The translations under genes were made by a program, and so were the position numbers. This document shows, piece after piece, positions 1 to 17,033 of a DNA stretch of 32,000 bases. This DNA is from Promethearchaeum syntrophicum. Lineage in GTDB: Archaea; Asgardarchaeota; Lokiarchaeia; Sigyniarchaeales; Promethearchaeaceae. How positions within the stretch are numbered: the stretch's first letter is position 1; every line of letters begins with the position of its first letter. Below the pieces are notes generated by a model, which was given only the letters and a program-made list of their open reading frames with translations, made no database searches and was not told the DNA's origin. Location: contig NZ_CP042905.2 in NCBI RefSeq assembly GCF_008000775.2, positions 1,140,001 to 1,172,000 of the forward strand. Reading direction: 5' to 3'.

Positions 1-3000
1 AGTTTTTCTACCTTCATCTAACCTGTCCGCCTGTTCAATTAGACCCGCTTCTCTTAATTTGATTGTTCCAGTTTTATAAAGCTCTACAGCTTTTGGATAG
101 GGGCATTCCAGAGATAATATTTTTCCTAAGCCGACTTCTTTTACATAAGCATTTACCACATCTTCAATTTTACTTAAATCACCTAAAACATTCTTTAATT
201 TTGATTCTTTCTTGGAAAGTACTTCAAGTTCTTTTTGGCGTTTTTCTCTTAATTCTTGCTCTTTGAGTTCTTTAATCCTTTGCGCTTCTTCCGCTTTCCT
301 TTCAATTTCTTCTTCATCTAACCGAGCTTTTTCTATTCTCTGAAATTCACGTTCGCGATGTTTCAGATCTTCAATAATTTTTCGTTCATAAGTTTTTCTA
401 CCTTCATCTAACCTGTCCGCTTGTTCAATTAAGCCAGCTTCTCTTAATTTAATTGTTCCAATTTTATAAAGCTCTACAGCTTTTGGATAGGGGCATTCCA
501 GAGATAATATTTTTCCTAAGCCGACTTCTTTTATATAAGCATTTACCACATCTTCAATTTTACTTAAATCACCTAAAACATTCTTTAATTTGGATTCTTT
601 CTTGGAAAGTACTTCAAGTTCTTTTTGACGTTTTTCTCTTAATTCTTTCTCTTTTAGTTCTATTAATCTTTGAGCTTCTTTAGCTCTTATCTCGATTTCT
701 TCTTCTCCTAATCTATATTTTTCTATTCTCTGAATTTCACGTTCGCGATGTTTCTCATCTTCAATAATTTTTCGTTCATAAGTTTTTCTACCTTCATCTA
801 ACCTGTCCGCTTGTTCAATTAGACCCGCTTCTCTTAATTTGATTGTTCCAGTTTTATAAAGCTCTACAGCTTTTGGATAGGGGCATTCCAGAGATAATAT
901 TTTTCCTAAGCCGACTTCTTTTACATAAACATTTACCACATCTTCAATTTTACTTAAATCACCTAAAACATTCTTTAATTTTGATTCTTTCTTGGAAAGT
1001 ACTTTAAGTTCTTTTTGGCGTTTTTCTCTTAATTCTTGATCTTTGAGTTCTATTAATCTTTGAGCTTCTTTAGCTTTTATCTCGATTTCTTCTTCTCCTA
1101 ACCTATATTTTTCTATTCTCTGAATTTCACGTTCGCGAAGTCTCTTATCTTCAATTATTTTCTGTTCATAAGTTTTTCTTCCTTCATCTAACCTGTCTGC
1201 TTGTTCAATTAAACCCGCTTCTCTTAATTTGATTGTGCCAATTTTATAAAGCTCTACAGCTTTTGGATAGGGGCATTCCAGAGATAATATTTTTCCTAAG
1301 CCGACTTCTTTTACATAAACATTTACCACATCTTCAATTTTACTTAAATCACCTAAGACATTCTTTAATTTTGATTCTTTCTTGGAAAGCGTTTCAAGTT
1401 CTTTTTGACGTTTTTCTCTTAATTCTTGCTCTTTGAGTTCTATTAATCTTTGAGCTTCTTTGGCTTTTATCTCGATTTCTTCTTCTCCTAACCTATATTT
1501 TTCTATTCTCTGAATTTCACGTTCGCGAAGTCCCTTATCTTCTTCGATTTTTCGTTCGTATGTTTTTCTACCATCATCTAACCTATCTGCTTGTTCGATT
1601 AGACCTGCTTCTCTTAATTTCTTTGTTCCTATATTATAAAGTTCTACAGCTTTTGGATATGGACATTCTAAGGACAAAATTTTACCTAAACCAACTCCTT
1701 TTGCATAATCATTAACAACATCTTCGATTTTACTAATATCACCTAAAACATCCTTTAATTTCGATTCTTTTTGAGAAATTGCTTCAAGTTCTTTTTGACG
1801 CTTATCTCTCAATTCTTTCTCTTTTAATTCTTGAATTCTTTGTGCTTCTTCCGCTTTCCTTTCAATTTCATCTTCATCTAACCGAGCTTTTTCTATTCTC
1901 TTTTTTTCGCGTTCACGAATCTTCTTATCTTCAAGAATTTTACTTTCGTAAGTTTTTCTTCCTTCATCCAAACGATTGGCTTGCTCAATTAAACCCGCTT
2001 CTCTCAATTTCTTTGTTCCAATATTATAAAGCTCAACTGCTTTTGGATACGGGCATTCTAAGAACAAAATCTTTCCTAAACCTACTTCTCTTGCATATTC
2101 GTTTACTACATCTTCAATTATACTAATATCGCCTAAAACATCTTTTAATTGTGATTCTTTTTGGGAAATTGCTTCAAGCTCTTTTTGCCGTCTCTCTCTT
2201 TGTTCCTTTTCTTTTTCTTCTTTTATTCTTAGAGATTCTTTAGCCTTTTGTTCAACCTCTTCTTCCTGTTTCTGAACATATTCTAAGTGTTTTCTTTTTT
2301 CTTCTTGATTTCTTTCAAAAATTAATAGTTTTTGCTTGTATGAGACTTCCCCATCTTTTAACAATTTTGAATGCTCATGAAATCCAATTTCGGATAATTT
2401 TTCACTACTTATTCGATATAATTCAATTGCTTCTGAATAACGGTTTTTTGCTTCAGTAAAATCTCCCTGTTGTTCCATAATATTTATTGCTTCTTCCATT
2501 TCACTTATTTTCGCAAGAATTTCTTTCAATTGATTATCTTTTTGAGTTAATTTTTCCAATTCATTCTGTCGTTTCGCTTTTGCTCTATTTAATTCTTCAT
2601 CTCTTAATTTTTGTGCTTCTTTTGCTTTTCTCTCGATCTCTTCTTTTTCTTGTTTGATATTTTCTAATCTTTGTTTTTCAAGTTCGCGAAGTTTCTCATC
2701 CTCAGTAATTTTTAGCTTGTATGTTTTACCCCCTTCTTCTAATCTGTCTGCTTGTTCAATTAAGCCTATTTCTCTTAGCTTATTTGTTCCAATATAGTAT
2801 AGCTCTACTGCTTTTGGATAAGGGCATTCTAAAGATAAAATTTTTCCAAGTCCGACTCGACTTTCATACCCACTTATAACTTCTTCAATTATACTTATGT
2901 CTTTAAGAACATCTTTTAATCGGGATTCTTTTTTAGATAATTCTTCTAATTCTTTTTGACGTTTTTCTTTTTCAATTCTTAATTTTTCATCCCTTAATAT

Positions 3001-3450
3001 TTGTGCTTCTTTAGCTTTCTTTTCAATCTCTTCTTCGTCTTGTTTAATTTTTTCTAATCTCTTTTTTTCTTCTACGCGCAGTTTTTCATCTTCAAAGATT
3101 TTTTGTTTGTACGTATTTTCTCCATCTGCTAAGCGATCAGCTTGGTCAAAGTATCCAATATCTCTTAGTTTTTTGCTTCCTTCTCCATAAGTTCTAATAG
3201 CATTTGGATATGGACATTCTAAAGATAGGATTTTGCCCAGATGAACTTGATTTTCATAATAATTAACTACATCTTCGATTTTACTGATATTTGACAATAC
3301 TTCCTTTAATTTCGCTTCTTTCTGAGAGAGAATCTCTAATTCCCTTTGACGTTTTTCTCGTTCCTCTTTTTCTTTGGATTCTCTTAGTTGTTGAGATTCT
3401 TTAGCTAGTTTCTCAATTGCTTCTTCATCTAAACGCTTTTTCATCAGGTT
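1..3450. repeat. In-frame tandem repeat array, 390-bp period, about 9 copies (1, 391, 781, 1171, 1561, 1951, 2341, 2721, 3111)
   Basis: The string agtttttcta/ccttcatcta/acctgtccgc recurs at 1, 391, 781 and 1171, and in diverged form at 1561 and 1951. Copies 1-4 differ by only a handful of bases over their first ~270 nt. Copies 5-9 diverge progressively, and the copy starting at 2341 is 381 bp. Confidence 0.9.
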
Positions 3451-4362
3451 TTCTTCTAGTTTTTTCTTTTCTGATTTTAGTTTTTCTCTTTGTTTAATGG
3501 TTAGGCTAATTTCTTCTTGAACTTCATTTGCTTCTTTTTGCCACCCAATTTTTTTGAAGATCTCTAAAGCTTCTTTATATGCATTCGTAGCTAAATCAAA
3601 TTGGTTTAAATTTCTAAATTGGATTGCTTCATCTAATAATGAAAGAGCTTTATCGCTTTTCGCTTTTTTAAGAAGTTCTTCCTTTTTATGTTCCATCTCA
3701 ATAGATTCTTGTAACCTTTTCTTTTCATCTTCTAATTTCCTTGATAGCTCTATTGTCTTTTGAGTTTCTTTTTGAGCTTCCCAAACTTTTTCGGCTTTTC
3801 TTTCATCATCTTTCAACTTTTTTTTATAATTTTGAAATTTATTTCTAGCATCATTTAATAATTCTAAAGTTCGGTTTACTTCTGCAGACCAGTTTATATT
3901 TTTAAAGTTTTCAAGTGCTTTCGTAAATGAATCTATACCTAATTGATAATCATCTTTTAATAAAGCTTTACTCCCCGTCTCTAAAAGATCATAGGCCTCA
4001 TTTGATAATTTTTCTTCAATTTCTTTCTTTTTCCTTAAAGCCTCTAATTTTTGATTTTTTTCTGCTGTCTTTCTATCTTGAAGTCGTTGACGAGCCGCTT
4101 CTAATTGTTTTTCTTTCTCTTTATTTTCAAGTTTTTTCTGTTCAATTTCCTTTTGTTTTCTAGCACGTTCTTCTTGAATTTTCACTTTTTTGTTAACTTC
4201 TTCAATCATAGATTTAATAGTCCTTACTCTTTCATCCCATCCCAGTTCAGTAGCCATATGTTTAGCTATCTCCAATTTTTGAAGACCTGAAGATATTTTT
4301 TTCTCTTGAATATCCAAATCTGCTTCGATGAGTAATAGATCAATTTTTTCTCGACTTGACAT
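1..4362 (-). CDS. Giant coiled-coil / TPR-like tandem-repeat protein, partial (3' end beyond the left window edge; at least 1,454 codons)
   Basis: ATG is the reverse complement of 4360..4362. Hand translation of the minus strand (codons aligned with position 1) gives MSSREKIDLLLIEADLDIQEKK... I checked every plus-strand triplet in that frame and found no TTA/CTA/TCA down to position 1. The sequence is E/K/R-rich heptad-like, interrupted by helical hairpins (e.g. VGLGKILSLECPYPKAVELYKTGTIKLREAGLIEQADRLDEGRKTY). It is missing from the ORF track only because it has no stop inside the window. Confidence 0.8.
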   Translation of the reverse strand, partial: MSSREKIDLLLIEADLDIQEKKISSGLQKLEIAKHMATELGWDERVRTIKSMIEEVNKKVKIQEERARKQKEIEQKKLENKEKEKQLEAARQRLQDRKTAEKNQKLEALRKKKEIEEKLSNEAYDLLETGSKALLKDDYQLGIDSFTKALENFKNINWSAEVNRTLELLNDARNKFQNYKKKLKDDERKAEKVWEAQKETQKTIELSRKLEDEKKRLQESIEMEHKKEELLKKAKSDKALSLLDEAIQFRNLNQFDLATNAYKEALEIFKKIGWQKEANEVQEEISLTIKQREKLKSEKKKLEENLMKKRLDEEAIEKLAKESQQLRESKEKEEREKRQRELEILSQKEAKLKEVLSNISKIEDVVNYYENQVHLGKILSLECPYPNAIRTYGEGSKKLRDIGYFDQADRLADGENTYKQKIFEDEKLRVEEKKRLEKIKQDEEEIEKKAKEAQILRDEKLRIEKEKRQKELEELSKKESRLKDVLKDISIIEEVISGYESRVGLGKILSLECPYPKAVELYYIGTNKLREIGLIEQADRLEEGGKTYKLKITEDEKLRELEKQRLENIKQEKEEIERKAKEAQKLRDEELNRAKAKRQNELEKLTQKDNQLKEILAKISEMEEAINIMEQQGDFTEAKNRYSEAIELYRISSEKLSEIGFHEHSKLLKDGEVSYKQKLLIFERNQEEKRKHLEYVQKQEEEVEQKAKESLRIKEEKEKEQRERRQKELEAISQKESQLKDVLGDISIIEDVVNEYAREVGLGKILFLECPYPKAVELYNIGTKKLREAGLIEQANRLDEGRKTYESKILEDKKIREREKKRIEKARLDEDEIERKAEEAQRIQELKEKELRDKRQKELEAISQKESKLKDVLGDISKIEDVVNDYAKGVGLGKILSLECPYPKAVELYNIGTKKLREAGLIEQADRLDDGRKTYERKIEEDKGLREREIQRIEKYRLGEEEIEIKAKEAQRLIELKEQELREKRQKELETLSKKESKLKNVLGDLSKIEDVVNVYVKEVGLGKILSLECPYPKAVELYKIGTIKLREAGLIEQADRLDEGRKTYEQKIIEDKRLREREIQRIEKYRLGEEEIEIKAKEAQRLIELKDQELREKRQKELKVLSKKESKLKNVLGDLSKIEDVVNVYVKEVGLGKILSLECPYPKAVELYKTGTIKLREAGLIEQADRLDEGRKTYERKIIEDEKHREREIQRIEKYRLGEEEIEIRAKEAQRLIELKEKELREKRQKELEVLSKKESKLKNVLGDLSKIEDVVNAYIKEVGLGKILSLECPYPKAVELYKIGTIKLREAGLIEQADRLDEGRKTYERKIIEDLKHREREFQRIEKARLDEEEIERKAEEAQRIKELKEQELREKRQKELEVLSKKESKLKNVLGDLSKIEDVVNAYVKEVGLGKILSLECPYPKAVELYKTGTIKLREAGLIEQADRLDEGRKT

Positions 4363-4441
4363 TATTATATTACCTTAAAATACATTAATTAAAAAATTCG
4401 ATTATGCTATCTACATTACAAAATTCTATTTTTAACTTAAA

Positions 4442-4702
4442 TTATAAATCTTGAGATTCAAGAAAATTGTCAGCTATCTCGCCACCGGTCTTTGAAAGAG
4501 AAAATTTATTATTATGATTTTCAATATATCCTTCTTTTTCTAACTTCTGTAATAAGCTAGCGATTTTAGATACATTCAGTTTAATTTTAATATCTGATCT
4601 TAGACTTAATGAAATCTCATCGATATTGACTGGTTCGCCTATATCATCTTCAATTACCCCTAAAGCAGCAATGACTGCATGTTCTATCTTCTTATCACCC
4701 AT
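4442..4702 (-). CDS. Small winged-helix-like DNA-binding protein (hypothetical)
   Basis: The ORF 4442..4732 begins with TTG, and the first ATG (MGDKKIEH...) is at 4702. The pattern ...NVSKIASLLQKLEKEGYIENHNNKFSLSKTG resembles a wHTH recognition helix plus wing. It is divergent from the downstream membrane-protein gene. Confidence 0.45.
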   Translation of the reverse strand: MGDKKIEHAVIAALGVIEDDIGEPVNIDEISLSLRSDIKIKLNVSKIASLLQKLEKEGYIENHNNKFSLSKTGGEIADNFLESQDL

Positions 4703-4791
4703 GTTTATTCCGAAGTTAATTATGAATGTCAACTTAAATATTTATTTTGTTAAGCATAAGGTTTTATTTGGCAATCGAATATTATAGTGAT

Positions 4792-7700
4792 ATGGCGAAA
4801 AAATCGTGTAGTAAACACTATAGGTACGTCGCAACTTGTCCGAATTGTAGGGCTGAAAATGACGCCAAAGAACCAGACAAGATTGTAGAGCCCGAAATAC
4901 CTTTATATGGAGATGTTAATGAGGGTGAAGATCGAGCTCCGCCACCAGATCGATTTCAATATATACGTCGTCTTCCTCCAGGTAGTAGAAAACGTTTATT
5001 AATTATCGGAGTGGTTATTGCTATAGTTATTGTGATTATTGGGCTATGGAGTATACCTCTATGGCTGGCTAAGATAAACTTACAACAACAGCTTTATGCA
5101 GTTAAAGGGGGTAATCTTGATTTCTGGGAATTATATACTCTAAATTTTTGGTCAACAAATTTTTTCTTTAATAAAATAGGGTTAATTGGAGCGTTAATTG
5201 GTTGTTTTATTATGTCAATTCCTCCTGAAAACACACTTCTTGCTCTTTTAGGGCGAAAATTTGGATGGGGTGTAATTTCTAAAAAAAAAGTATTCTTATT
5301 ATGGTGGACTGCTGGATTTGCACTTTTCTTTATAATTGGCCAAGCTATGGAAACTGGATATTTTGCATTATCCATGTATATGATCGAAGAAGGAGATACA
5401 TCATTTTCTTTTTTAAAAGCTATCAGTATATTGAATGGTAATTCAAACGTTTCTCAATTGGATGTATTTATCTATAAATCCGTAACTCTTCCGATAATCA
5501 ATTATATTTTAATTTTAATCGCTCTAAGAGTCATAATTTTAATAGTAAAATATTTCCTTTTAAAAGATGAATTCTTGATTGCAGCTCAAGTTAGTTTCTT
5601 AATAGAAATTTTCTTCTTGATGGGATTATTTGGAAAACCCCTTGATACATTAAATGGAATAGATTTTATACAGATATGGAGTATATACCTTGGTTTAATT
5701 ATTTTCCTTGGTGTGGGGATTGCCTTCATGATCATCGGAAAAAGGAGAAGAAGAATCAATATTACTCAATTTCCACGAAATATTCAAAAACAGGCAATTG
5801 TTAGTGCCCTTGCGATAATCATCATTATTTTAATCCCTGTTTTTAGTAGTATTCCAAAAAGTGTAGGGTTAACTCAACAAGAAATTTGGGAGGAAGTTGA
5901 ATGGGATGTAAAATATGAGAAACAAATTGACTGGACCCGACAAGCGGCAGGGATGGAAATTGGCACTAAAGAATTTTTCACCGTGAATGATATTAATGAT
6001 TATCCAGACAATGTCACTGTTGAAGATTTGGATCTCTTGAATGTCATTCGGCGATATGATAAACAAATCTCAGTAAAACAAATGGACCCTATTGCCCAAT
6101 TAACGCATGAGTCCCTCGCAGATAGTGATATCATATTTATTCCTAACGGAACAGGACAAGGAGAATATTGGGTTGCTCCTAAAACAATAAATGTTGATAT
6201 TCTTGATAATTCGGTAAAAATGCATACAGAATTCTATGACCATGTAGAAGGTTTTATTGCATTAGATACTTCCTCTGGGGGTATTGTCGATAATGCCGAA
6301 TTTGAAGCTATTTTTGGAGTTTCAAGTGATCATCCAATTTTCTTTGGTGAACGTGAAGAATCATTCGATACTAGTTCTGTTTTTGACACTACTACGTTTA
6401 TTGAAAAAATTGCGTATGAAAATGATATTTTACTAGGTAGTAATTGGAGTACAACTAACACTTATCGTTATGATATAACCAATGATCTTCCTGATGGGAA
6501 TCTTACTGGGTTACAAGCATTTTGGTTTACATTAGATATGGGTTTAACCTCATATGCACTTGATGGTCAGCTGAAAGAATATTTAATTAACAGAAATATT
6601 CGAACTCGTGTGGAATCCGTATTAATGCCAGGTCTTAGAATAGATGATGATCCGTATTTAGTGTTTGATCGAGAAAATGGGAAAATGTTTTATGCTGTAT
6701 CAATTTTTACCGATATCGAAATTGGCTCCTATACTATGTGTCCTATGTATCGTTTTATGGGTGTTGCTTTAATTGATGTTAAGAGCGGTGAAATATCTTG
6801 GTATAGAAATCCTGGATTACCTGCCTTTACTAATGACAATCTAGGATCTCTTTGGAGTTTATATGCAAATCTTTATCCATGGCAAGATCCTGAAATTTGG
6901 CTCATGAATCAACTTCGTTATCCAGAAACTCTATGGGAAAATCAATTAAAGGTCGATTATATTTATCACGTTACTGAACCAACCACATGGTTTGCTGAGA
7001 ATGATTTTTATGTACTACCTGACAATGGAGATGTGTTCTATATTGAAACGGATTTAGGAGATGGACTCGAATTTGTTGGTGTTCAACTTGTAAAATACAC
7101 TCGTGCTGAAGCATTAAAACTAGCTGGTCTTTACATAATAAGACAAGGAGAACATTTTGGGGAAACATTGTTTTATCAGACACTAAATTCTCTACAAGAT
7201 TTAACTGGACCAAATACCGCATCTGATCAATTTGAAACAGACGCAAGTGAAAGAATAACTCTTATAGGCGATAATAGGTTTGGTAATGTTCTTCTATATC
7301 CCCTCGCAGGTTCTCTTTATTATTTTATCCCCGTTTATTCTGTTTTAGAAGATTATGAAACGTTAGCTTTTATTGGACTTGTGAACGCTTTCAATAAATC
7401 CCTAATAGCATATGGAAATACATTAGCTGAAGCTTATAGTGATTTATCAATTAAACTTGATTTGACAACACCGGTAGAAACTTCATCTGATGATTTAGCA
7501 TTAAATTTGATTTCATATACTGAAGAAATTACCTATGGTGTTGATAATTGGGCAGAATTTAGAACTTTAATTGATTATTTCAATACTACAGAGACTCTTC
7601 CGATGCGAAACCTTACCTTAAACATGACAGTTCGTTCCGCAGTAAATATGAGTGTTAAAGTATCAAATGTGTTAATTCCTGGGATAGAATATGATTTTAC

Positions 7701-7920
7701 GCCCTTAACAACAGCTTTTAATTATACTCTCGCAACTTGGAATGATACAACAGGATTAAACCCTGGCGATTTAGCGGGAATTACAATTAAAATGAACACT
7801 GAAGAAAATTTGGACTCAGATATCTATGTTTATTATAAGTTTGATTTAATTGATATAGATGATCCAACAAAGATATTATCTACCGTCTGGTATTCCATTT
7901 TATGGAATGTAGATGTTTAA
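4792..7920 (+). CDS. UPF0182-family large polytopic membrane protein with an N-terminal zinc-knuckle extension
   Basis: About 1,040 aa. It has an N-terminal block of multiple hydrophobic helices followed by a large soluble region. The region contains LRYPETLWENQLKVDYIYHVTEPTTWF, which resembles the conserved YPEDLF...YHMTDP..FY signature I recall for UPF0182. N-terminal motif: CSKHYRYVATCPNC. The track start at 4747 is TTG, so I prefer the ATG at 4792 (MAKKSC...). Confidence 0.65.
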   Translation: MAKKSCSKHYRYVATCPNCRAENDAKEPDKIVEPEIPLYGDVNEGEDRAPPPDRFQYIRRLPPGSRKRLLIIGVVIAIVIVIIGLWSIPLWLAKINLQQQLYAVKGGNLDFWELYTLNFWSTNFFFNKIGLIGALIGCFIMSIPPENTLLALLGRKFGWGVISKKKVFLLWWTAGFALFFIIGQAMETGYFALSMYMIEEGDTSFSFLKAISILNGNSNVSQLDVFIYKSVTLPIINYILILIALRVIILIVKYFLLKDEFLIAAQVSFLIEIFFLMGLFGKPLDTLNGIDFIQIWSIYLGLIIFLGVGIAFMIIGKRRRRINITQFPRNIQKQAIVSALAIIIIILIPVFSSIPKSVGLTQQEIWEEVEWDVKYEKQIDWTRQAAGMEIGTKEFFTVNDINDYPDNVTVEDLDLLNVIRRYDKQISVKQMDPIAQLTHESLADSDIIFIPNGTGQGEYWVAPKTINVDILDNSVKMHTEFYDHVEGFIALDTSSGGIVDNAEFEAIFGVSSDHPIFFGEREESFDTSSVFDTTTFIEKIAYENDILLGSNWSTTNTYRYDITNDLPDGNLTGLQAFWFTLDMGLTSYALDGQLKEYLINRNIRTRVESVLMPGLRIDDDPYLVFDRENGKMFYAVSIFTDIEIGSYTMCPMYRFMGVALIDVKSGEISWYRNPGLPAFTNDNLGSLWSLYANLYPWQDPEIWLMNQLRYPETLWENQLKVDYIYHVTEPTTWFAENDFYVLPDNGDVFYIETDLGDGLEFVGVQLVKYTRAEALKLAGLYIIRQGEHFGETLFYQTLNSLQDLTGPNTASDQFETDASERITLIGDNRFGNVLLYPLAGSLYYFIPVYSVLEDYETLAFIGLVNAFNKSLIAYGNTLAEAYSDLSIKLDLTTPVETSSDDLALNLISYTEEITYGVDNWAEFRTLIDYFNTTETLPMRNLTLNMTVRSAVNMSVKVSNVLIPGIEYDFTPLTTAFNYTLATWNDTTGLNPGDLAGITIKMNTEENLDSDIYVYYKFDLIDIDDPTKILSTVWYSILWNVDV

Positions 7921-8807: not shown

Positions 8808-10247
8808 TTATTCCTTTAAAATTTCCATTTTTCGAAGTTTTTCTTTAAATTTCTCGATATCTTGTAATCTTTCTCGTTTTGCTTTTTCGTGCGCCTCTAA
8901 TTCTTTAGGATCGATTTTAAATAAGGTAACCCCTTTTCCGATATTTTTCATCAGTTCTTCTAAAACATCTAGTTTATTTTTAACATTACTTAACTTTTGT
9001 AACCTTTGATTCTTGGCAGTCTCATATTCTTTAAGGTCTTCTTCATTAATTCTACTCAAAGGAATTTCATTAGAAATAGTATTTACTAATTCTTCAGCAA
9101 CATCCAGATGATTCTTAAGAACTTGGATTCTTGATCTCCTTTGGAATCTCTCTGCTTCATATTTTTGTAATTCTTCATTAGAAATATGCTCTAAACTTGG
9201 CGCTTCTTGAATTTCTTTCAAAAGCTGATTTGAAATATCGAACTTTGCTTTTATATTCTCTTTTGTTCTTTTTACCTCTGCTATTCTTTTTAATTTTTCC
9301 TGTTCATATTCCTTTTTATCTTCTTCAGCAATAGGTTTTAATGATACTCCTTTCATCTCAACAAAAAGTTGTTCTACTTTATTTAGTTTTGCTTGGATAC
9401 CAGTTAATTCTTCAAGTTTTTCTGTTTTATTCTTTGAAATTTTCTTTAAGTAATTATCTGCTATTTCAAATTTTTCTAAAAATTCAATTTTCATCTCTTC
9501 TGGTAGATCTGGTTTAATTTCTTTTGCAATCTCCTCAACTAGTTCAATGATAACCTCCATTTTAGTCTTAATTTTGCTAACATCCTTCATACGCCGTTTT
9601 CTATCCTTCGCGAGTTCTTTTAATTCTTTTTCGTCTACGGGATTTAGCTTTAACTCTTTGCTTGAGATTTCTTCTAAAATATTACCAAATTGATTTAAAT
9701 GAAAATTTGCTTCATTTAAAGTTTTTAATCTCTTTTGCTTTTCTTCCTCATATTTTTGTATTTCTTTCTGATCAATTTTTTCAAGTTGTTCAATTGGATT
9801 TTGTGAAATCTCCTCTAAGATTGTTGAGAAAGATTTCAATTTTTCAATTGCGTTTTGTTTTTCTTTCTGATATTTCTTTAGATCATCTTCATCGACTTTT
9901 TTAAGTTGTGGAGCCTGGCTAATCTCTTCTAGGAGAGTTTGAGTGTGATCAACAGTTTCTTTTAATTTTAAGAATTTTTCTCTTCTCTCTTGTTTATACT
10001 TTTCATATTCTCCTTTTTCTTTTAAATCAATTGCTTTTAGTTGTATTTTACCTTCCAATAATTCTTCCATCATATCTTTTGCATTATCGTACAATAGTTT
10101 AACGTCGTCAATCTTCTTCATTCTCTCTTTTCGTTTTTCTTCATAAATTTGCTTCTCATCCGCGTTAATCCCTACTAAATTCACTTTTTTTTCTAATAAT
10201 TCCTTCTGAAGATCCTTTATTTTTTTTTTTTCTTCTTCTTCGACCAT
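8808..10247 (-). CDS. Coiled-coil protein with about 10 degenerate 40-48-aa repeats
   Basis: 479 aa and E/K-rich. A unit like LLEEIsxxPxLxx(I/V)DxxELxKYExEKxxRLxxL recurs (e.g. LLEEISQAPQLKKVDEDDLKKYQKEKQ, ILEEISQNPIEQLEKIDQKEIQKYEEEKQKR, LLKEIQEAPSLEHISNEELQKYEAERFQR). Confidence 0.7.
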   Translation of the reverse strand: MVEEEEKKKIKDLQKELLEKKVNLVGINADEKQIYEEKRKERMKKIDDVKLLYDNAKDMMEELLEGKIQLKAIDLKEKGEYEKYKQERREKFLKLKETVDHTQTLLEEISQAPQLKKVDEDDLKKYQKEKQNAIEKLKSFSTILEEISQNPIEQLEKIDQKEIQKYEEEKQKRLKTLNEANFHLNQFGNILEEISSKELKLNPVDEKELKELAKDRKRRMKDVSKIKTKMEVIIELVEEIAKEIKPDLPEEMKIEFLEKFEIADNYLKKISKNKTEKLEELTGIQAKLNKVEQLFVEMKGVSLKPIAEEDKKEYEQEKLKRIAEVKRTKENIKAKFDISNQLLKEIQEAPSLEHISNEELQKYEAERFQRRSRIQVLKNHLDVAEELVNTISNEIPLSRINEEDLKEYETAKNQRLQKLSNVKNKLDVLEELMKNIGKGVTLFKIDPKELEAHEKAKRERLQDIEKFKEKLRKMEILKE

Positions 10248-10375: not shown

Positions 10376-11101
10376 TTATTCCCAATAATTTGGCTCGTCA
10401 CTATTTAAGGCTTCTGTGCTTCCAGTTTTCATGGTTTCTTCACACACCCCGCAAACGTAGTACTTAAATATCGTCATCACAATATGATTATGATTTATGG
10501 GTTTTTTTTTGTTCAAAATTGAGTAATATTCAATTTCTTCATCCTTGTAGTCTGTAGATACGGGATTTCCGTTAATATCCGTTATTTTCACAATACTTTG
10601 GATTTCTAGATTCCCCATTGAAGATCTAAAAGCGAGATTATCGTCCTCAATTGGTATGTTTTCTAAAATTTTTCCCGCCCAATCAGGAGTAAATTCCCTT
10701 ATATTTTCGGGAATTTTATTATTATTGACATCATCTATAAAATTTTGGAGGTTTTGTTGTAATTCTTTTATTGTAATCCATTCATTCTCTTTCCCATTTT
10801 CTTTTAGAGCAAAATCACTTAATTCATCAATTCTGGGGATAGTTTGAATAATATTTTCTTCGCTGTGATTAATTTGAAAGAGGGTATAGGATTCTGGATA
10901 ATCTTTTGTATCCTCATACAGATCATTTAAAAATTTTTGAAATTCTGTTAATATCATCTTATATTTCTGGTTATAGGTTGCAATTTGGGTTTTTATTTCT
11001 TCTTGGATTGATTTTATATCAAATTGAGCTAAAATTTCTTTTTTAGACCTCCCACAATAATAACAGACTTCCTTTTTAGCTTTTTTGATAATTTCAATCA
11101 T
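10376..11101 (-). CDS. Hypothetical protein with terminal CxxC pairs (possible split zinc ribbon)
   Basis: 241 aa with an ATG start. CYYC lies near the N-terminus and CGVC near the C-terminus, with an acidic middle. I recognise no family. Confidence 0.55.
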   Translation of the reverse strand: MIEIIKKAKKEVCYYCGRSKKEILAQFDIKSIQEEIKTQIATYNQKYKMILTEFQKFLNDLYEDTKDYPESYTLFQINHSEENIIQTIPRIDELSDFALKENGKENEWITIKELQQNLQNFIDDVNNNKIPENIREFTPDWAGKILENIPIEDDNLAFRSSMGNLEIQSIVKITDINGNPVSTDYKDEEIEYYSILNKKKPINHNHIVMTIFKYYVCGVCEETMKTGSTEALNSDEPNYWE

Positions 11102-11907: not shown

Positions 11908-12525
11908 TTATTTCTTTTTTTGAAAAAAATAATCCAGAAATCCAAATTTATATTTTGAATCGAGCTCCAATCGATGAATAAATTTCTTCTGTTTTTCTAG
12001 AATATGCACATCTTTTAGCATGATTTCACATTCCTCTTCAGTTAAAAGAGTATGGATAACTTTTTCTCCATCAAAAATTTCAACATATTCACCCGGTGCT
12101 AGTTCTTCTGCACTTTTATGGAGATCGTCATCAATATCTAAAAAATTTATAAACCCAATACCACCAGGTTTAAGAATTCGAATCATTTCATTAACAGCTT
12201 GATGAATTTCTTTTTTAGTCATATGGAAAATAGTATTGTAAGAGTATACAGCATCAAAAGAATTATCTTCAAATGGAATTTCTTTCATATTTGCTTTTTG
12301 CAGGTTAATTTCAATATTATTTTCCTTAGCAAATTGCTTCGCTGACTCTAAGGAATCATCAGAAATATCAATTCCATATAAATCCTTATATCCGTATTTT
12401 GCTAAAAGCCCTAATTTAGGGTATCGCCCCCCTGCACCACAATCAAGGATTTTATTTCCAACTTCTTTCTGTTTTAAAAACCACAAAAAATCATATATTT
12501 CTGTTGTGAATTCATTTCGATTCAT
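11908..12525 (-). CDS. Class I SAM-dependent methyltransferase
   Basis: ILDCGAGGR (motif I), LYGIDISD (motif II acidic residue) and FDAVYSYNTIFHM match a Methyltransf_11/25-like layout. It lies 37 bp downstream of the nucleotidyltransferase gene. Confidence 0.8.
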   Translation of the reverse strand: MNRNEFTTEIYDFLWFLKQKEVGNKILDCGAGGRYPKLGLLAKYGYKDLYGIDISDDSLESAKQFAKENNIEINLQKANMKEIPFEDNSFDAVYSYNTIFHMTKKEIHQAVNEMIRILKPGGIGFINFLDIDDDLHKSAEELAPGEYVEIFDGEKVIHTLLTEEECEIMLKDVHILEKQKKFIHRLELDSKYKFGFLDYFFQKKK

Positions 12526-12562
12526 AAATCTAAACCTCTAATAACTCAATTATTAATTTTAA

Positions 12563-13285
12563 TTATAATTTCTTTTGAATTTGCTTTGCTAAATTTAAAT
12601 CATCAAGCGTATCAATTTCCATGCAAAATTCATTTACAATATCCAAAGGGATCAAATTTATTGTATCTGAGATCTCATTAAAAGCATTTTCAGCATAACA
12701 AGAAGTATTATTGTTTTTTACGAATTTCTCAATATTATTCATCCATAATTCAAAGTCTTCTTTAGTCCAATAATAAAGAGGGAGTAGGAATATGGCTTTT
12801 TCTCCAAATACGTCAATTCCAATTTTTGTTATTTTTCCATTTTGGATTAATCCCTTAAAATCCTTTTCAGGTAATGGGGTTGCTCGATCAACGATAGCGG
12901 AACTTTTTTTTTGTTTGACTATTTTTTGAATCACAGATTTTTCAAACACTAAATCTCCATGTAATAGAAGAATATCGTCATCATTGATTTCACTTCTCGC
13001 CAGCCACATTGAATAAATATAATTTGTAGATTCGAATTTTGGATTATTGGGATATATTACATCTAATTCGGGGAATTTTTCGTTTACATGATTAATTATT
13101 TTATCTTGTAAAGGACCAGTGGTGATAATATATTTTTTTACTCCGACTGATAATAATAATTCAATCTGGCGCTGTAAAATCGATTTTCCGTTTATTTCTA
13201 ATAAACATTTTGGCAAATTATCTGTTAAAGGTTTCAATCTGCGCGCTAAACCAGAATTTAAGATTAATGCTTTCATAGGTTTCAT
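12563..13285 (-). CDS. LicC/GlmU-type nucleotidyltransferase (candidate phosphonate or phospho-alcohol cytidylyltransferase)
   Basis: N-terminus KALILNSGLARRLKPLTDNLPKCLLEINGKSIL is the NTP-transferase signature (G-x-G-x-R-L...P-K). 240 aa. Confidence 0.75.
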   Translation of the reverse strand: MKPMKALILNSGLARRLKPLTDNLPKCLLEINGKSILQRQIELLLSVGVKKYIITTGPLQDKIINHVNEKFPELDVIYPNNPKFESTNYIYSMWLARSEINDDDILLLHGDLVFEKSVIQKIVKQKKSSAIVDRATPLPEKDFKGLIQNGKITKIGIDVFGEKAIFLLPLYYWTKEDFELWMNNIEKFVKNNNTSCYAENAFNEISDTINLIPLDIVNEFCMEIDTLDDLNLAKQIQKKL

Positions 13286-13300
13286 CTTTGATATTTATCT

Positions 13301-14470
13301 TTATAATAGTGTATGTAAAATTTTCCTTAATTTGTCTTCAGTTAATTTTCTGGGATTGTGCTTCACACGATCGGGAGTAAACCCTTCAGCGATTATCAAT
13401 TCAATTCCTTTCTTATCTATTCCAACTTCATGCAATTTAGTGGGTAAATTAAGAGTTGTCATCAAATTTGTTATCATCTGTGCAGCATTATCAGGTGAAT
13501 CTGCTCCAATCGCATCTGAGATTTTCCTTAACCGATCAGGGGCTTCATCTATGTTATTTTCAGTTTTTTCAGAATTGAATAAAAGAAATTGACTAAGTGT
13601 CAATGCACAAGCTAGTCCATGAGGGACATTGAAATGTAATGTAATTGGATAAGAGACTGAATGAACCGCAGTAGTTTTTGTATTGCTAAATGCTAAACCA
13701 GATAATAAACTTCCAAATGCTAGATTTTTTCGGATGTCAATATTTGAAGGATCTTTGAAAATCTCTTGGAGATTTGAAAATATAATAGGAATTGCTTGCA
13801 AAGCATAAATATCAGAAATCTTATTATGGTTTTTTGACCAATAAGCTTCAATAGCTTGACTGAATGCATCCAATCCCGTAATAACTGACATTTTTTTCGG
13901 TAAACTTTTGACTAGCGTTGGATCAATAATAGCACCTTTTGCATACATCTTAAGGTCAGATAAAGAATACTTTTTTTGCTTTTCTCCCAAATCCCAGACT
14001 GTAGCCCATCGAGTAACTTCAGAACCGGTTCCGGATGTTGTAGGTACTTCTATCAAAGGAATTCCATAATTTTCAAGAGTTTTACCTTCTTTAAGATACA
14101 GATTAATACTCCCTGGATTATTTCCTAATATTGCCATACATTTAGCAGTATCCATGGCGGATCCTCCTCCAATTCCAATTATTAAATTGTAATTCTTATT
14201 CCTGACTAAATTTGCTCCATTATCAATAATCTTTATCGAGGAGAAATATCCTTCTTTTTCAAAAATCTCAACTATAAAACCATCTTTTTCTAATAATTCA
14301 AGAATTTTTTCGGAAATTCCCAAAATATTTAGAAGGTTTTTATCAGTGACAATAAGTATCTTAGCATTTTTTATACTTTTTGTATATTTTTGAACAATCT
14401 CGGAAATATTTAGTAGTGAATTTATTCCAAATAGGACTTCCACCGGATTGTAATAAGTTTTCAATGTCAT
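13301..14470 (-). CDS. Group III iron-containing alcohol dehydrogenase (candidate phosphonoacetaldehyde reductase)
   Basis: GIGGGSAMDTAK and PTTSGTGSEVT motifs are present. It sits immediately downstream of ppd. The track start at 14479 is TTG, and the first ATG (MTLKTYYNP...) is at 14470. Confidence 0.8.
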   Translation of the reverse strand: MTLKTYYNPVEVLFGINSLLNISEIVQKYTKSIKNAKILIVTDKNLLNILGISEKILELLEKDGFIVEIFEKEGYFSSIKIIDNGANLVRNKNYNLIIGIGGGSAMDTAKCMAILGNNPGSINLYLKEGKTLENYGIPLIEVPTTSGTGSEVTRWATVWDLGEKQKKYSLSDLKMYAKGAIIDPTLVKSLPKKMSVITGLDAFSQAIEAYWSKNHNKISDIYALQAIPIIFSNLQEIFKDPSNIDIRKNLAFGSLLSGLAFSNTKTTAVHSVSYPITLHFNVPHGLACALTLSQFLLFNSEKTENNIDEAPDRLRKISDAIGADSPDNAAQMITNLMTTLNLPTKLHEVGIDKKGIELIIAEGFTPDRVKHNPRKLTEDKLRKILHTLL

Positions 14471-14503
14471 CTTTATCAATTTTCAATTTTTTTTTTTTTT
14501 ACT

Positions 14504-15631
14504 TTAATCTTGAAGAAATTTCATAAAATAGTCTTTATTTTGAATTGGAGTAGTGGTAGGTCTTCCCAAATCATCTCGTGAGCCTTTTTTGACTTTAATA
14601 ATTAACATTGATGGTCCTTTTCCATCTTCCTTGAACATCTTATTTAATGCAATTTTCAATTCTTCTTTATTATTTGCTTGATAAACTGAAGTATAGCCAC
14701 TTCCAAGACAAATTTCTTTGAAATTGATGGTATCTGAGACAGTAGGTTGTCCCCCTGTAGATTCATGAGCATTGTTATCAATTAATATATGGAAAAAGTT
14801 CTCTGGATGATAGTGTCCAATAGTAGTTAGTGCACCAAGCTGCATAATTAATGCGCCATCACCATCTAATACAACAGTTTTTTTCTTTGAATTCAATGCT
14901 ATGCCTAAAGCGATTGAAGAAGTGCATCCCATCGAACCTACTGTGTAGAAATCGCGTGGATTTTCTCCTCTCGCAATTCTTAACTCAAAAATTTCTCGAG
15001 AAGTTTTACCTGTTGTTGAAACAATAACCTCGTCACCAGTGAAGGATTCAATTATTGTTTTTAATGCTTCTTCCCTCGTCATTTCATAAGTAATTTCTTT
15101 TCTTTTTGTACTAGTAAAAGGTTCAATTATGTTTTTTTTTACAATCAAAGCATAGGGTTTTTTATTGTCCTTAAAGAAAATTGAAATTTTTTGTAGTACC
15201 TGCTCAAATTCTGATAGAGTTTCTGGTAAATAACTATAGGGAATTTCTAGTGCTTCTAAAATAGGTATCATAACTCTTCCCATTTTTTTATGTTGAGGTT
15301 CATCCTTCTTACCTGGTTCACCCCTCCATCCAATCATTAATAATATTGGTATAGAATATACTTCAAAATCTGCCAGAGAAGTAATAGGATTGACCGTTTT
15401 TCCAAATCCAGAATTTTGCATATATACAACTCCAACATTTTTTGTTGCTAAATGATAACCTGAAGCAATAGCCACTGCTTCACACTCATTACAAGCAATA
15501 ATATTTTTCAATTCATTTCCATTATTTTCATCTAAATAGGTCATCCACGCTTTAAAAGTTGAATCAGGAACACCCGTAAAGAAAGAAAAATTGTGTTTTT
15601 TAAAACCATTCCAAATTTCATTACAATTCAT
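14504..15631 (-). CDS. ppd: Phosphonopyruvate decarboxylase (ThDP-dependent)
   Basis: It has N-terminal FFTGVPDS and the ThDP motif GDGALIMQLGALTTIGHYHPENFFHILIDNN. At ~375 aa it is typical of Ppd/ComDE, and it lies 18 bp downstream of pepM. The track start at 15640 is GTG, and the first ATG is at 15631. Confidence 0.8.
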   Translation of the reverse strand: MNCNEIWNGFKKHNFSFFTGVPDSTFKAWMTYLDENNGNELKNIIACNECEAVAIASGYHLATKNVGVVYMQNSGFGKTVNPITSLADFEVYSIPILLMIGWRGEPGKKDEPQHKKMGRVMIPILEALEIPYSYLPETLSEFEQVLQKISIFFKDNKKPYALIVKKNIIEPFTSTKRKEITYEMTREEALKTIIESFTGDEVIVSTTGKTSREIFELRIARGENPRDFYTVGSMGCTSSIALGIALNSKKKTVVLDGDGALIMQLGALTTIGHYHPENFFHILIDNNAHESTGGQPTVSDTINFKEICLGSGYTSVYQANNKEELKIALNKMFKEDGKGPSMLIIKVKKGSRDDLGRPTTTPIQNKDYFMKFLQD

Positions 15632-15649
15632 ATTATTCACACCAGCACT

Positions 15650-16945
15650 TCAAATTGGTATTAAATCAAGTATTTCTTTAATCGAGATACAATATTTATC
15701 AGAAGCTTCTTTCGCTCTATGATTTGTTAAAATTGATTTTGCGGTTTTCAGCATATTCGGATATGCACTTCTGAGAAGCTGATTTGCATAAATTACAACT
15801 TTAATTCCTGCACTTATTAATTCTTCTTCAGTAATTTGGGAATATGTGCTTGGAACAACAACTAACGGAACTTTATCTTTTAAATTATTGTAATTTTTAC
15901 AAAAAGTTAGAATCTCATCAGGATTATCTTCTTTACTATGAATCATAATACCATCAGCTCCCGCCTTGATATATGCTTTAGCGCGTTTCAAAGCATCTTC
16001 TTGACCTTGTTTAAGTATAAGACTTTCAATTCGTGCAATAATCATAAAGTCTTTAGTTACTTGGGCTTTTTTTCCTGAATTGATTTTAGTAGAGAAGTTT
16101 TCAATGGTATCTTGACGTTGAACTACATCAGTTCCAAATAGAGAATTTCTCTTCATACCCACTTTATCTTCAATAATAACTGCTGAAATCCCCAATCTTT
16201 CTAAAGTTTTAACGGTATATAAAAAATGTTCAACTAATCCCCCATTGTCTGCATCAACAATCATTGGTTTGGTTGTTACATCGAGAATTTCATTAATTGT
16301 CCTTATTCTTGACGTAATATCGACGCACCCCGTATCCGGTTTACCTTTAGAGGTAGAATCTGTTAAACTACTCTCCCACATCCCATCAAACTCTCTAAAA
16401 GATTCTCCTTCATAAATACCCGTTAATTCCGCAATTCTTCCTGTTAATCCATTATGTGTTTCGAGTATTCTAACAATAGGTTTCATTTGAATAAGTGTTC
16501 TTAGTTTCTTAAGTCGCTTTTCTGGCGTGGTCCCTACTCCAAATTTATCTTTAATTAATTGTCCAGAGTTTAATCCTTCTGTGAATTCTGGTTCAATCAA
16601 ATTTCCATCCCATTCTTTTAAAACTTCTATTACCTGCAATCTAGTATTCTTTAAAGGACCTTCTTTCCAATCATCACCGTGGACTACATATTCTGGTTTG
16701 ATTTTTCTTAAATTCTCACTATAGTCTAAAGAATTCTGGGGGATTATTTCTGATACTCCTTGAATATTTTCAATGACCTCCTTTCTCTGTTGATAATTTA
16801 AAACGGGAAGTCGTTTGTATGTAGCAATCGCTTCATCTGTAAGCAACCCTATTATAACTTGACCGAGTTTCCTTGCTTCTTTAATGATTCGAAGATGTCC
16901 CGGATGTATGAAATCAGCTGAAAGTGCAACATAAACCTTTGTCAT
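15650..16945 (-). CDS. pepM: Bifunctional cytidylyltransferase (HxGH type) - phosphoenolpyruvate mutase fusion
   Basis: The N-terminal ~135 aa (YVALSADFIHPGHLRIIKEARKLG) show the TagD-like HxGH nucleotidyltransferase motif. The C-terminal ~290 aa contain ETHNGLTGRIAE, MWESSLTDS and VDADNGG. They also carry the PepM-diagnostic EDKVGMKRNS (EDKX5NS) at 16142..16171, verified at the nucleotide level. The track start at 16957 is TTG, and the ATG is at 16945. Confidence 0.85.
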   Translation of the reverse strand: MTKVYVALSADFIHPGHLRIIKEARKLGQVIIGLLTDEAIATYKRLPVLNYQQRKEVIENIQGVSEIIPQNSLDYSENLRKIKPEYVVHGDDWKEGPLKNTRLQVIEVLKEWDGNLIEPEFTEGLNSGQLIKDKFGVGTTPEKRLKKLRTLIQMKPIVRILETHNGLTGRIAELTGIYEGESFREFDGMWESSLTDSTSKGKPDTGCVDITSRIRTINEILDVTTKPMIVDADNGGLVEHFLYTVKTLERLGISAVIIEDKVGMKRNSLFGTDVVQRQDTIENFSTKINSGKKAQVTKDFMIIARIESLILKQGQEDALKRAKAYIKAGADGIMIHSKEDNPDEILTFCKNYNNLKDKVPLVVVPSTYSQITEEELISAGIKVVIYANQLLRSAYPNMLKTAKSILTNHRAKEASDKYCISIKEILDLIPI

Positions 16946-17033
16946 ATTTTCTATCAAGCAATCATTGAAAAAAAAGTTTCAACATTTATTGCATGGATCA
17001 AAGAATTTTAGGAATGAAAAATGATAGTAATAT

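Follow-up and report, generated by a model that had tools for sequence, protein, structure and literature searches.

A giant protein of Promethearchaeum syntrophicum predicted to be an 18-module all-alpha beads-on-a-rod molecule

Lokiarchaeota grown in culture possess an actin cytoskeleton and extend long protrusions, and we know of few structural or scaffold proteins that have been named for them. DSAG12_01611 of Promethearchaeum syntrophicum MK-D1 is confidently predicted to be a very elongated, regularly beaded molecule. Its gene lies on the minus strand at the left end of the stretch of DNA analysed here (32,000 nucleotides, contig NZ_CP042905.2, positions 1,140,001 to 1,172,000; 'the window'). 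The closest described systems are the tetratricopeptide repeat (TPR) and the MIT domain for its globular parts ('knobs'), single alpha-helix domains for the spacers between the knobs, and spectrin and the golgins for the molecule as a whole.

TPR proteins (Pfam clan CL0020: TPR_1, TPR_2, TPR_12) share with DSAG12_01611 a helical hairpin that carries A-x3-Y/F-x2-A (PYPKAVELYKTG in this protein, PYxxAIxxYxxA in its family), followed by G-W and a capping helix. However, the motifs of DSAG12_01611 are never adjacent. About 100 residues of helix lie between successive hairpins, so that no superhelix or groove results, and its predominant (CPY-type) modules carry a 10-residue insertion in the turn between helices A and B. 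MIT domains (PF04212; Vps4, spastin, MITD1, NRBF2) occur as isolated three-helix bundles; at ~75 residues each amounts to 1.5 TPRs, and in this respect they resemble the knobs. DSAG12_01611 differs in having eighteen copies in one chain, no fusion to an AAA ATPase or kinase and no ESCRT neighbourhood, and it gives no significant sequence or fold match to MIT.

ER/K-type single alpha-helix (SAH) domains are known in myosin VI, myosin X and caldesmon. The spacers of DSAG12_01611 are similar in being exposed helix with 50–60% Glu, Lys and Arg, no heptad, an excess of opposite charges at i/i+4 and a deficit of like-charge pairs. In contrast to these domains, there are 17 spacers, each running on into a bundle helix at either end, strongly hydrophobic residues are more frequent (~20–25%), and single-helix behaviour is a prediction.

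The likeness to spectrin is one of topology: an elongated modular rod in which helix C of a bundle carries on unbroken as helix A of the following bundle. Spectrin bundles abut, with a 106-aa period and heptad packing, whereas those of DSAG12_01611 are separated by ~50 exposed residues and include one helix of only 17 residues. Golgins and other long coiled-coil tethers are likewise large, all-alpha, Glu/Lys-rich, rod-like and cytoplasmic, with a short basic C-terminal segment, but their heptad periodicity is not found in DSAG12_01611 and its regular globular knobs have no golgin counterpart. An earlier, first-pass annotation of the window had remarked that the protein recalls spectrin- or golgin-like scaffolds. 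The topology is indeed alike, but as an analogy and not as homology: no spectrin family is among the Pfam matches, Foldseek against 5j4o gives E 5.7 with a template modelling (TM) score of 0.15–0.20, and nothing that qualifies as a spectrin repeat was found. No homology to eukaryotic spectrin or golgins should be read into DSAG12_01611.

The features of the gene within the window are as follows.

1..4362, minus strand: codons 1–1454 of the 2,547-codon DSAG12_01611; no stop, 1454/1454 identity, ratio of nonsynonymous to synonymous substitution rates (dN/dS) 0.15 against a 71%-identical orthologue.
3502..4362, minus strand: N-terminal region, aa 1–287; TPR-like hairpin, then two divergent modules at aa 48–170 and 171–286 (iterated module profile; sub-threshold Pfam TPR_1 at aa 247–268).
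4..3501, minus strand: nine CPY-type modules of 127–130 aa, aa 288–1453, with loop GLGKILSLECPYP (profile tiling, AlphaFold2).
2344..2724, minus strand: third CPY-type module, aa 547–673, with a canonical TPR-like turn, QQGDFTEAKNRYSEAIELY, in place of the loop and LECPYP (best Pfam TPR_2 stretch at aa 628–649).
4..1953, minus strand: modules 5–9, aa 804–1453; amplified block with 78–95% protein identity (identity matrices, dS/dN, tandem repeat array).

DSAG12_01611 is a real, conserved gene, already annotated yet unstudied. The reverse complement of window positions 1..4362 is free of stops for all 1,454 codons and starts with an ATG at 4362..4360, and the other five frames of the same interval contain 49–155 stops each. 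With ~31% G+C, stops make up ~8% of random codons, and by simple arithmetic the chance of an open frame of 1,454 codons is of order 1e-51. The frame matches DSAG12_01611 at 1454 of 1454 residues (BLASTP). This 2,547-aa protein (QEE15784.2 / WP_369019542.1 / UniProt A0A5B9D9F8; P0079 in the protein set used here) was found by an exhaustive HMMER search with the module profile described below. It is recorded publicly as 'hypothetical protein DSAG12_01611 [Promethearchaeum syntrophicum]' on a 4.32-Mb contig. The window holds the N-terminal 57% of it, and a further 1,093 codons lie past window position 1. In Supplementary Table 3 of Imachi et al. 2020 (PMC7015854) it is listed as 'Tetratricopeptide repeat protein', with 254 reads per kilobase per million mapped reads (RPKM) and without a eukaryotic signature protein flag. 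A literature search (locus tag, accessions, Asgard giant proteins, single alpha-helix, MIT/TPR in Asgard ESCRT) found no study of the module family apart from that annotation line. The first-pass annotation had described a giant minus-strand open reading frame (ORF), open from the ATG at 4362 to position 1 and leaving the window, and had surmised an Asgard host. All of this agrees with the present data, and independent translation finds no in-frame stop in 1..4362. It had also called the gene missed, which was a mistake: the gene is annotated in the public MK-D1 genome as well as in the 2020 table, and the ORF list then in use drops ORFs that cross the window end. Between DSAG12_01611 and its 71%-identical orthologue P0001 dN/dS is 0.15, and among modules 5–9 compared pairwise it is 0.12–0.40, with dS of 0.14–1.0. 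The gene is under purifying selection, both between repeats and between orthologues.

The protein is modular over most of its length. Tandem Repeats Finder reports a period of 390 bp with 5.8 copies at 1..2249 (88% matches, 0% indels). A hidden Markov model (HMM) of the module was started from the nine modules of the window and refined by iteration over 45 homologues, with a module length of 116–130 aa across whole proteins. It recovers nine modules over aa 288–1453 in addition to two divergent N-terminal copies in aa 48–286, and in the full protein it identifies 18 modules over aa 48–2343. Two divergent N-terminal modules are followed by twelve of the CPY type (aa 288–1842) and four C-terminal modules of the TPR type. 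Eleven of the twelve CPY-type modules contain CPY itself and one is the TPR-like variant. The window protein contains LECPYP eight times (aa 381, 511, 768, 898, 1028, 1158, 1288 and 1418), and the one remaining window module (the third, 127 aa long) carries QQGDFTEAKNRYSEAIELY instead. The nine repeats of 130 aa (390 bp) and the single deviating copy had both been recognised from the sequence earlier and are borne out by the HMM tiling and the tandem repeat analysis. LECPYP had been considered invariant; this holds within DSAG12_01611 but not across the family, where only P-Y and a few aromatic residues are kept. The last ~200 residues end in a basic tail, …IIEERKKRRREARKKLLGD. The overall composition is balanced, with 568 Lys plus Arg against 566 Asp plus Glu (Glu 17%, Lys 16%). 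As the first-pass annotation had stated, there is no signal peptide or transmembrane segment: the maximum 19-residue Kyte-Doolittle mean over the full protein is 0.97. Because DSAG12_01611 lacks a hydrophobic segment it is probably cytoplasmic; a secreted or surface-protein reading was set aside.

The fold was predicted with AlphaFold2. A three-module model (aa 994–1323, from an alignment of 22 three-module fragments) has a mean predicted local distance difference test score (pLDDT) of 90.6 and a predicted TM score (pTM) of 0.43, with helices at model positions 2-28, 39-55, 59-158, 169-185, 189-288, 299-315 and 319-329. A model of the knob only (111 aa, 48 sequences) has a pLDDT of 89.1 and a pTM of 0.70, with helices at 2-39, 50-66 and 70-110. 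The CPY-type module is confidently predicted to consist of two helices, the first of ~100 and the second of 17 residues, joined by the 10-residue loop GLGKILSLECPYP. The knob is predicted, again with confidence, to be a three-helix bundle in which the short helix packs with the last part of the long helix before it and the first part of the long helix after it. The ~50 residues between knobs, 50–60% of which are Glu, Lys or Arg, are confidently modelled as exposed helix. In terms of known repeats, the final ~20 residues of the long helix correspond to TPR helix A, the short helix, PYxxA(I/V)xxY, to TPR helix B and the initial ~25 residues of the following long helix to the capping helix; in the prediction the three pack as a '1.5-TPR' or MIT-like knob. 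With high model confidence, DSAG12_01611 is predicted to be an 18-module all-alpha beads-on-a-rod protein, and we are largely confident of this structural description. Calculated at 0.15 nm per helical residue, a knob would occur every ~11–12 nm and the 18 modules would span ~200 nm if extended.

The knob shows similarity to both TPR and MIT units. The family consensus, …AE…YE…kG.f…cPYxxAIxxYxxA…L…GWxxEA…I..YxEKLxKDxKLRExE, includes the TPR helix-B signature A-x3-Y-x2-A. The 34-residue TPR motif is recognised by profile in the full-length protein, whose scores for TPR_12 (32.9 bits, cut-off 30.1) and TPR_2 (31.0 bits, cut-off 27) exceed the whole-protein thresholds of Pfam, though only as sums of weak stretches; no individual stretch is significant with the Pfam TPR models. 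The window fragment is below the cut-offs (TPR_2 23.3, TPR_1 16.4 bits). Three or more adjacent motifs stacked into a superhelix with a groove do not occur; single hairpins lie between 100-residue helices with a period of 116–130 aa. Against the PDB, the module profile matches the consensus-designed TPR protein 7obi (CTPR-rv4, E 2.2e-4) and nothing meaningful beyond designed consensus TPR proteins. The knob model is also an asymmetric three-helix bundle of ~75 residues, as expected of MIT; a significant PF04212 match for DSAG12_01611 is lacking. Weak Foldseek matches are to three-helix bundles, including designed proteins, BAG domains and at least eight MIT-domain entries. Among the best superpositions are the designed 8xyv_A (root-mean-square deviation 3.0 over 89 columns), the MIT domains 2v6y, 4niq and 4a5x, and BAG domains, none of them statistically strong. 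NCBIfam matches fall far under their cut-offs. Matches to DUF4904 (39.9 bits), Bc2l-C_N (30.8), WisP CCD, Ntox14 and Tn916-Xis were rejected as spurious, since none has an individually significant stretch and the scores come from summed repeats. Judged from the models, the knob is a TPR/MIT-like '1.5-TPR' bundle that can be assigned to neither family and is never part of a contiguous TPR solenoid. The architecture is undescribed, and DSAG12_01611 is a variant of TPR-like repeat proteins. That the module belongs to no characterised family, as proposed at first pass, is in keeping with Pfam, NCBIfam and the PDB, which yield nothing specific.

The E/K/R-rich stretches between knobs had originally been read as coiled coil, which is probably wrong. 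A coiled coil should show heptad a/d periodicity along stretches of tens of residues. Across 114 spacers, taken from 31 family members and with E/K/R fractions of 0.4–0.6, the Fourier power at period 3.5 equals that of shuffled sequences (mean z 0.12; z>2 in 6%), and in short central stretches the best a/d register is occupied to the same degree as in the average shuffle. In the spacers of DSAG12_01611, attractive charge pairs at i+3/i+4 are more frequent than expected (mean z 1.46) and like charges at i+4 less frequent (z -0.8 to -3.4), a pattern that favours bonds within one helix. Distant homologues carry 1–2.5 Pro or Gly per spacer. The length of the spacer (about 52–60 aa) is kept while its sequence is not, and recent copies differ mostly in the spacer, with the knob nearly invariant. 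An ER/K SAH is E/K/R-rich, with i/i+4 opposite-charge pairs and no hydrophobic seam, and this is what the spacers show, although the signal is moderate and not extreme. Because heptad periodicity is absent, the charge pairs follow this pattern and Pro and Gly occur in the spacers of distant homologues, ER/K-type single alpha-helices, i.e. semi-rigid rods constrained in composition and length, appear to be a better fit than a heptad coiled coil.

True coiled coils would make DSAG12_01611 a parallel or antiparallel homo-oligomer forming a filament or a tether like a golgin or intermediate filament, with the hairpins acting as stutters or hinges. In favour of this, the helices run on for as many as 100 residues without interruption, a fifth to a quarter of spacer residues (~20–25%) are strongly hydrophobic, the size and rod shape are those of long tethers, and AlphaFold2 monomer models would show coiled-coil strands as single helices too. 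Nevertheless, this explanation is unlikely given the five properties just described: periodicity no higher than in shuffles, a/d occupancy at the shuffle mean, intrahelical charge pairs, tolerance of Pro and Gly, and a spacer that is the least conserved part of the module.

A second alternative, a special case of the scaffold explanation given below, is that the knobs are MIT-type domains whose ligands are the C-terminal MIM helices of Asgard ESCRT-III subunits; the protein would then template, measure or recruit ESCRT-III polymers. Among distant homologues PF04212 exceeds its cut-off of 30 only in P0018 (34.5 bits) and P0007 (30.5 bits), and MIT is present in the precomputed matches of many paralogues. 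The MIT domains of Sulfolobus Vps4, yeast Vps4, MITD1, NRBF2, ULK3 and spastin recur in the weak Foldseek matches (TM 0.44–0.53, normalised to the target, for MIT domains superposed on the knob model), and hhalign places PYxxAIxxY on MIT helices 1-2, in register into helix 3. However, PF04212 has no match in DSAG12_01611 at E<=0.05, the hhalign probability is only 24%, all MIT domains have Foldseek E >2, and TPR models outscore MIT wherever both match. There are no adjoining ESCRT genes in any of the five loci described below, and MIT and 1.5-TPR units are in principle hard to distinguish. The specific ESCRT-III reading is accordingly improbable.

The best overall explanation is that DSAG12_01611 is a beads-on-a-rod protein acting as a long multivalent cytoplasmic spacer or scaffold. 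Structure and function taken together, we would give this about even weight; the scaffold function taken singly is a tentative suggestion by analogy, and somewhat doubtful. Its weakest step is that the knobs would be protein-binding sites like TPR and MIT units. DSAG12_01611 would then keep a polymer, or numerous copies of a partner, at set intervals in the cytoplasm or beneath the membrane, with the conserved basic C-terminal tail (…EERKKRRREARKKLLGD) as a possible anchor. This tail (P0079 aa 2520-2547) is conserved among proteins that are only ~25% identical (RREERRKRI / EERKKRRREARKK) and could be a membrane-binding segment, a nucleic acid-binding segment or a docking helix. Inspection by eye of the basic tails of family members for an ESCRT-III MIM1-like motif, (D/E)xxLxxRLxxL(K/R), gave no consistent register. 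A more speculative version, to which we attach little probability, is a lokiarchaeal molecular ruler or tether. Here each of the ~18 evenly spaced MIT/TPR-like knobs would bind one subunit of a cytoskeletal or membrane-remodelling polymer (ESCRT-III or lokiactin filaments), and the tail or the neighbouring UPF0182 membrane protein would fix the molecule to the membrane. DSAG12_01611 would in this way determine how long, or how far apart, structures of the cell body or protrusions are. Such a ruler would be an independently evolved prokaryotic counterpart of giant scaffolds such as nebulin, spectrin or golgins. If the knobs bind a polymer or membrane factor, the protein would represent a lineage-specific route to long-range order in the cells closest to eukaryotes.

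DSAG12_01611 might instead have no specific partners and be a charged polyampholyte 'bristle', an entropic spring, or a crowding or condensate-forming protein, whose knobs only stabilise the helices and set their stiffness. This would suit the extreme but balanced composition given above, the freely varying copy number between orthologues, and a spacer constrained only in composition and length. The knob, however, is strongly conserved, including the 10-residue loop and the motif Y-x-x-K-L-x-x-D-x-K-L-R-E that follows, which is more than a stiffener needs, and modules 1–4 are kept as positional orthologues. We consider it a slim chance. Even as charged filler, the protein would be a clean natural case of repeated TPR-like bundles on single-helix spacers, useful to protein designers.

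Several observations weigh against the scaffold interpretation or the structure beneath it. The fold of DSAG12_01611 is an AlphaFold2 prediction, and a monomer run, which draws a coiled-coil strand as a single helix too, cannot tell an SAH from an intermolecular coiled coil. The hydrophobic content of the spacers (~20–25%) is above that of textbook ER/K helices, and the salt-bridge enrichment is modest, with z of only 0.1–0.9 in copies 5–7. No solved structure matches: Foldseek against the PDB gives nothing better than E 0.4 with either model. Aligned by hhalign, the module profile reaches a probability of 23.9% with the VPS4A MIT domain and 10% with CTPR3. Because a single TPR hairpin has no canonical peptide groove, 'binding knob' is only an analogy. 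The conserved neighbours of the gene give no functional clue, and in the published table RPKM hardly varies (114–533 across ~115 genes, 205–349 for ribosomal proteins).

As the table is so flat, the RPKM of 254 for DSAG12_01611 says little beyond presence: it indicates signal, not regulation, and is weak evidence of expression. The run DRR199588 is a gene-expression (RNA-seq) run of MK-D1 (Imachi et al. 2020, PMC7015854), and its reads cover the first 830 codons of the gene. A 3,950-bp Logan contig from it (L001, DRR199588_297), found via the 86-aa neighbour described below, is identical to window 1872..5821; the assembly ends at 1872, where module copies reach ~80% or higher identity. This contig spans two divergent genes and both intergenic spacers unbroken. 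The unbroken contig and the flat RPKM values together suggest a high uniform background in DRR199588, possibly genomic DNA.

The modules differ in age. Window modules 1–4 are positional orthologues of modules 1–4 of P0001, the best identities (75, 88, 65 and 77%) lying on the diagonal. Modules 5–9 are 78–95% identical to each other and all have their best match in P0001 modules 5/6. By sequence comparison they are a lineage-specific amplification that continues outside the window with modules 10–12. The TPR-like variant module must be old because it occupies the same position in the orthologues P0001 and P0002. The number of strong CPY-type matches with the first-pass HMM varies from 7 in P0001 to 8 in P0005, 11 in P0004 and 13 in P0003, compared with 12 in MK-D1; module number is evolutionarily adjustable. 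That the array is an assembly artefact or the frame not a real gene is scarcely credible: the independent contig does stop at 1872 among similar copies and relatives' genes are often fragmented in metagenome assemblies, but the MK-D1 genome is reported closed at 52x coverage, the window copies differ at 5–26% of DNA positions and can be distinguished, dN/dS between copies is 0.12–0.40, and complete orthologues of 1,554–2,417 aa with the same neighbours exist in other genomes. The exact number of near-identical copies (modules 6–11) could be wrong; nothing else is in doubt.

A search of 1.84 billion representative proteins with the module profile gives 210 matches at E<=1e-3 and 147 at E<=1e-10. 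All named strong and mid-range matches that were looked up are from Promethearchaeota or 'Candidatus Lokiarchaeota'; Promethearchaeota is one phylum among 20 of the Asgard kingdom in current NCBI taxonomy. The weakest matches are generic fungal TPR-like proteins, which match the TPR part only. A word-indexed protein search returned only short fragments for the module profile, and only close relatives and fragments for the C-terminal 682 aa. A scan of genome contigs yielded just one contig, from a 71%-identical Promethearchaeum sp. MAG, and a scan of metagenome contigs yielded none; the identical MK-D1 protein was recovered by the exhaustive HMMER search but by neither the word-indexed search nor the genome-contig scan. 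On this sequence evidence the family is apparently specific to Lokiarchaeota, conserved across the phylum and in its neighbourhood. One paralogous subfamily has a 116-aa period and is represented by P0061 (2,119 aa, TPR-type knobs; L007 6001..12360, CP070831.1), whose gene immediately precedes a ThiF (E1-like) gene and has a UQ_con (E2) gene nearby. This subfamily may be linked to the Asgard ubiquitin system, or the neighbourhood may be due to chance.

The genomic context of DSAG12_01611 is well conserved. The gene order is UPF0182 (divergent), a small protein of 86–131 aa, the giant protein, an RHH protein (convergent) and a protein of 106–107 aa. It is found in MK-D1 itself and in four further loci (L002, L003, L004 and L005/L006), whose giant proteins are 71% to about 25% identical. 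The features adjoining the gene in the window are given here.

4363..4441, no strand: AT-rich 79-bp spacer separating DSAG12_01611 from the small gene upstream (sequence reading).
4442..4702, minus strand: conserved 86-aa gene DSAG12_01612, directly upstream and co-directional; orthologues at the same place in L002 (56%), L003 (36%) and L004/L005.
4747..7920, plus strand: UPF0182/COG1615 protein DSAG12_01613, divergent, start codon uncertain (Pfam PF03699, E 1.1e-10; same place in four other loci).

Within the spacer, TTTTTAATTAA, about 25–35 nt before the ATG, is a possible archaeal TATA-like element. DSAG12_01612 has a weak winged-helix likeness (Pfam HTH_45, E 9e-4, under the cut-off). The neighbours in Imachi et al. 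2020 (PMC7015854) are 01610, a putative nickel-responsive regulator; 01612, hypothetical; 01613, COG1615/arCOG06128; and 01614, Lrp/AsnC, in agreement with the window. Two further ORFs on the minus strand, 8808..10247 (479 aa) and 10376..11101 (241 aa), have no Pfam match at E<=0.01 and correspond to the hypothetical proteins DSAG12_01615 and DSAG12_01616.

Further into the window, 11908..16957 on the minus strand holds a cluster of the phosphonate-biosynthesis type (Pfam; KEGG K01841/K09459 in Supplementary Table 3 of Imachi et al. 2020), which consists of the following genes.

15650..16957, minus strand: phosphoenolpyruvate phosphomutase fused to a cytidylyltransferase.
14504..15640, minus strand: thiamine pyrophosphate-dependent decarboxylase annotated as phosphonopyruvate decarboxylase.
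13301..14479, minus strand: Fe-alcohol dehydrogenase.
12563..13285, minus strand: nucleotidyltransferase.
11908..12525, minus strand: S-adenosylmethionine methyltransferase.

This cluster suggests phosphonate-modified lipids or glycans in MK-D1. A leucine-rich-repeat protein (LRR_4, LRR_8; 18113..19378, plus strand) adjoins a thermosome subunit (Cpn60_TCP1, E 5e-164; 19414..21057, minus strand). Finally, a 647-aa protein encoded at 29577..31520 on the minus strand has a C-terminal RING finger (zf-RING_2, 29.2 bits vs a cut-off of 27.3), a eukaryote-like E3-type domain.

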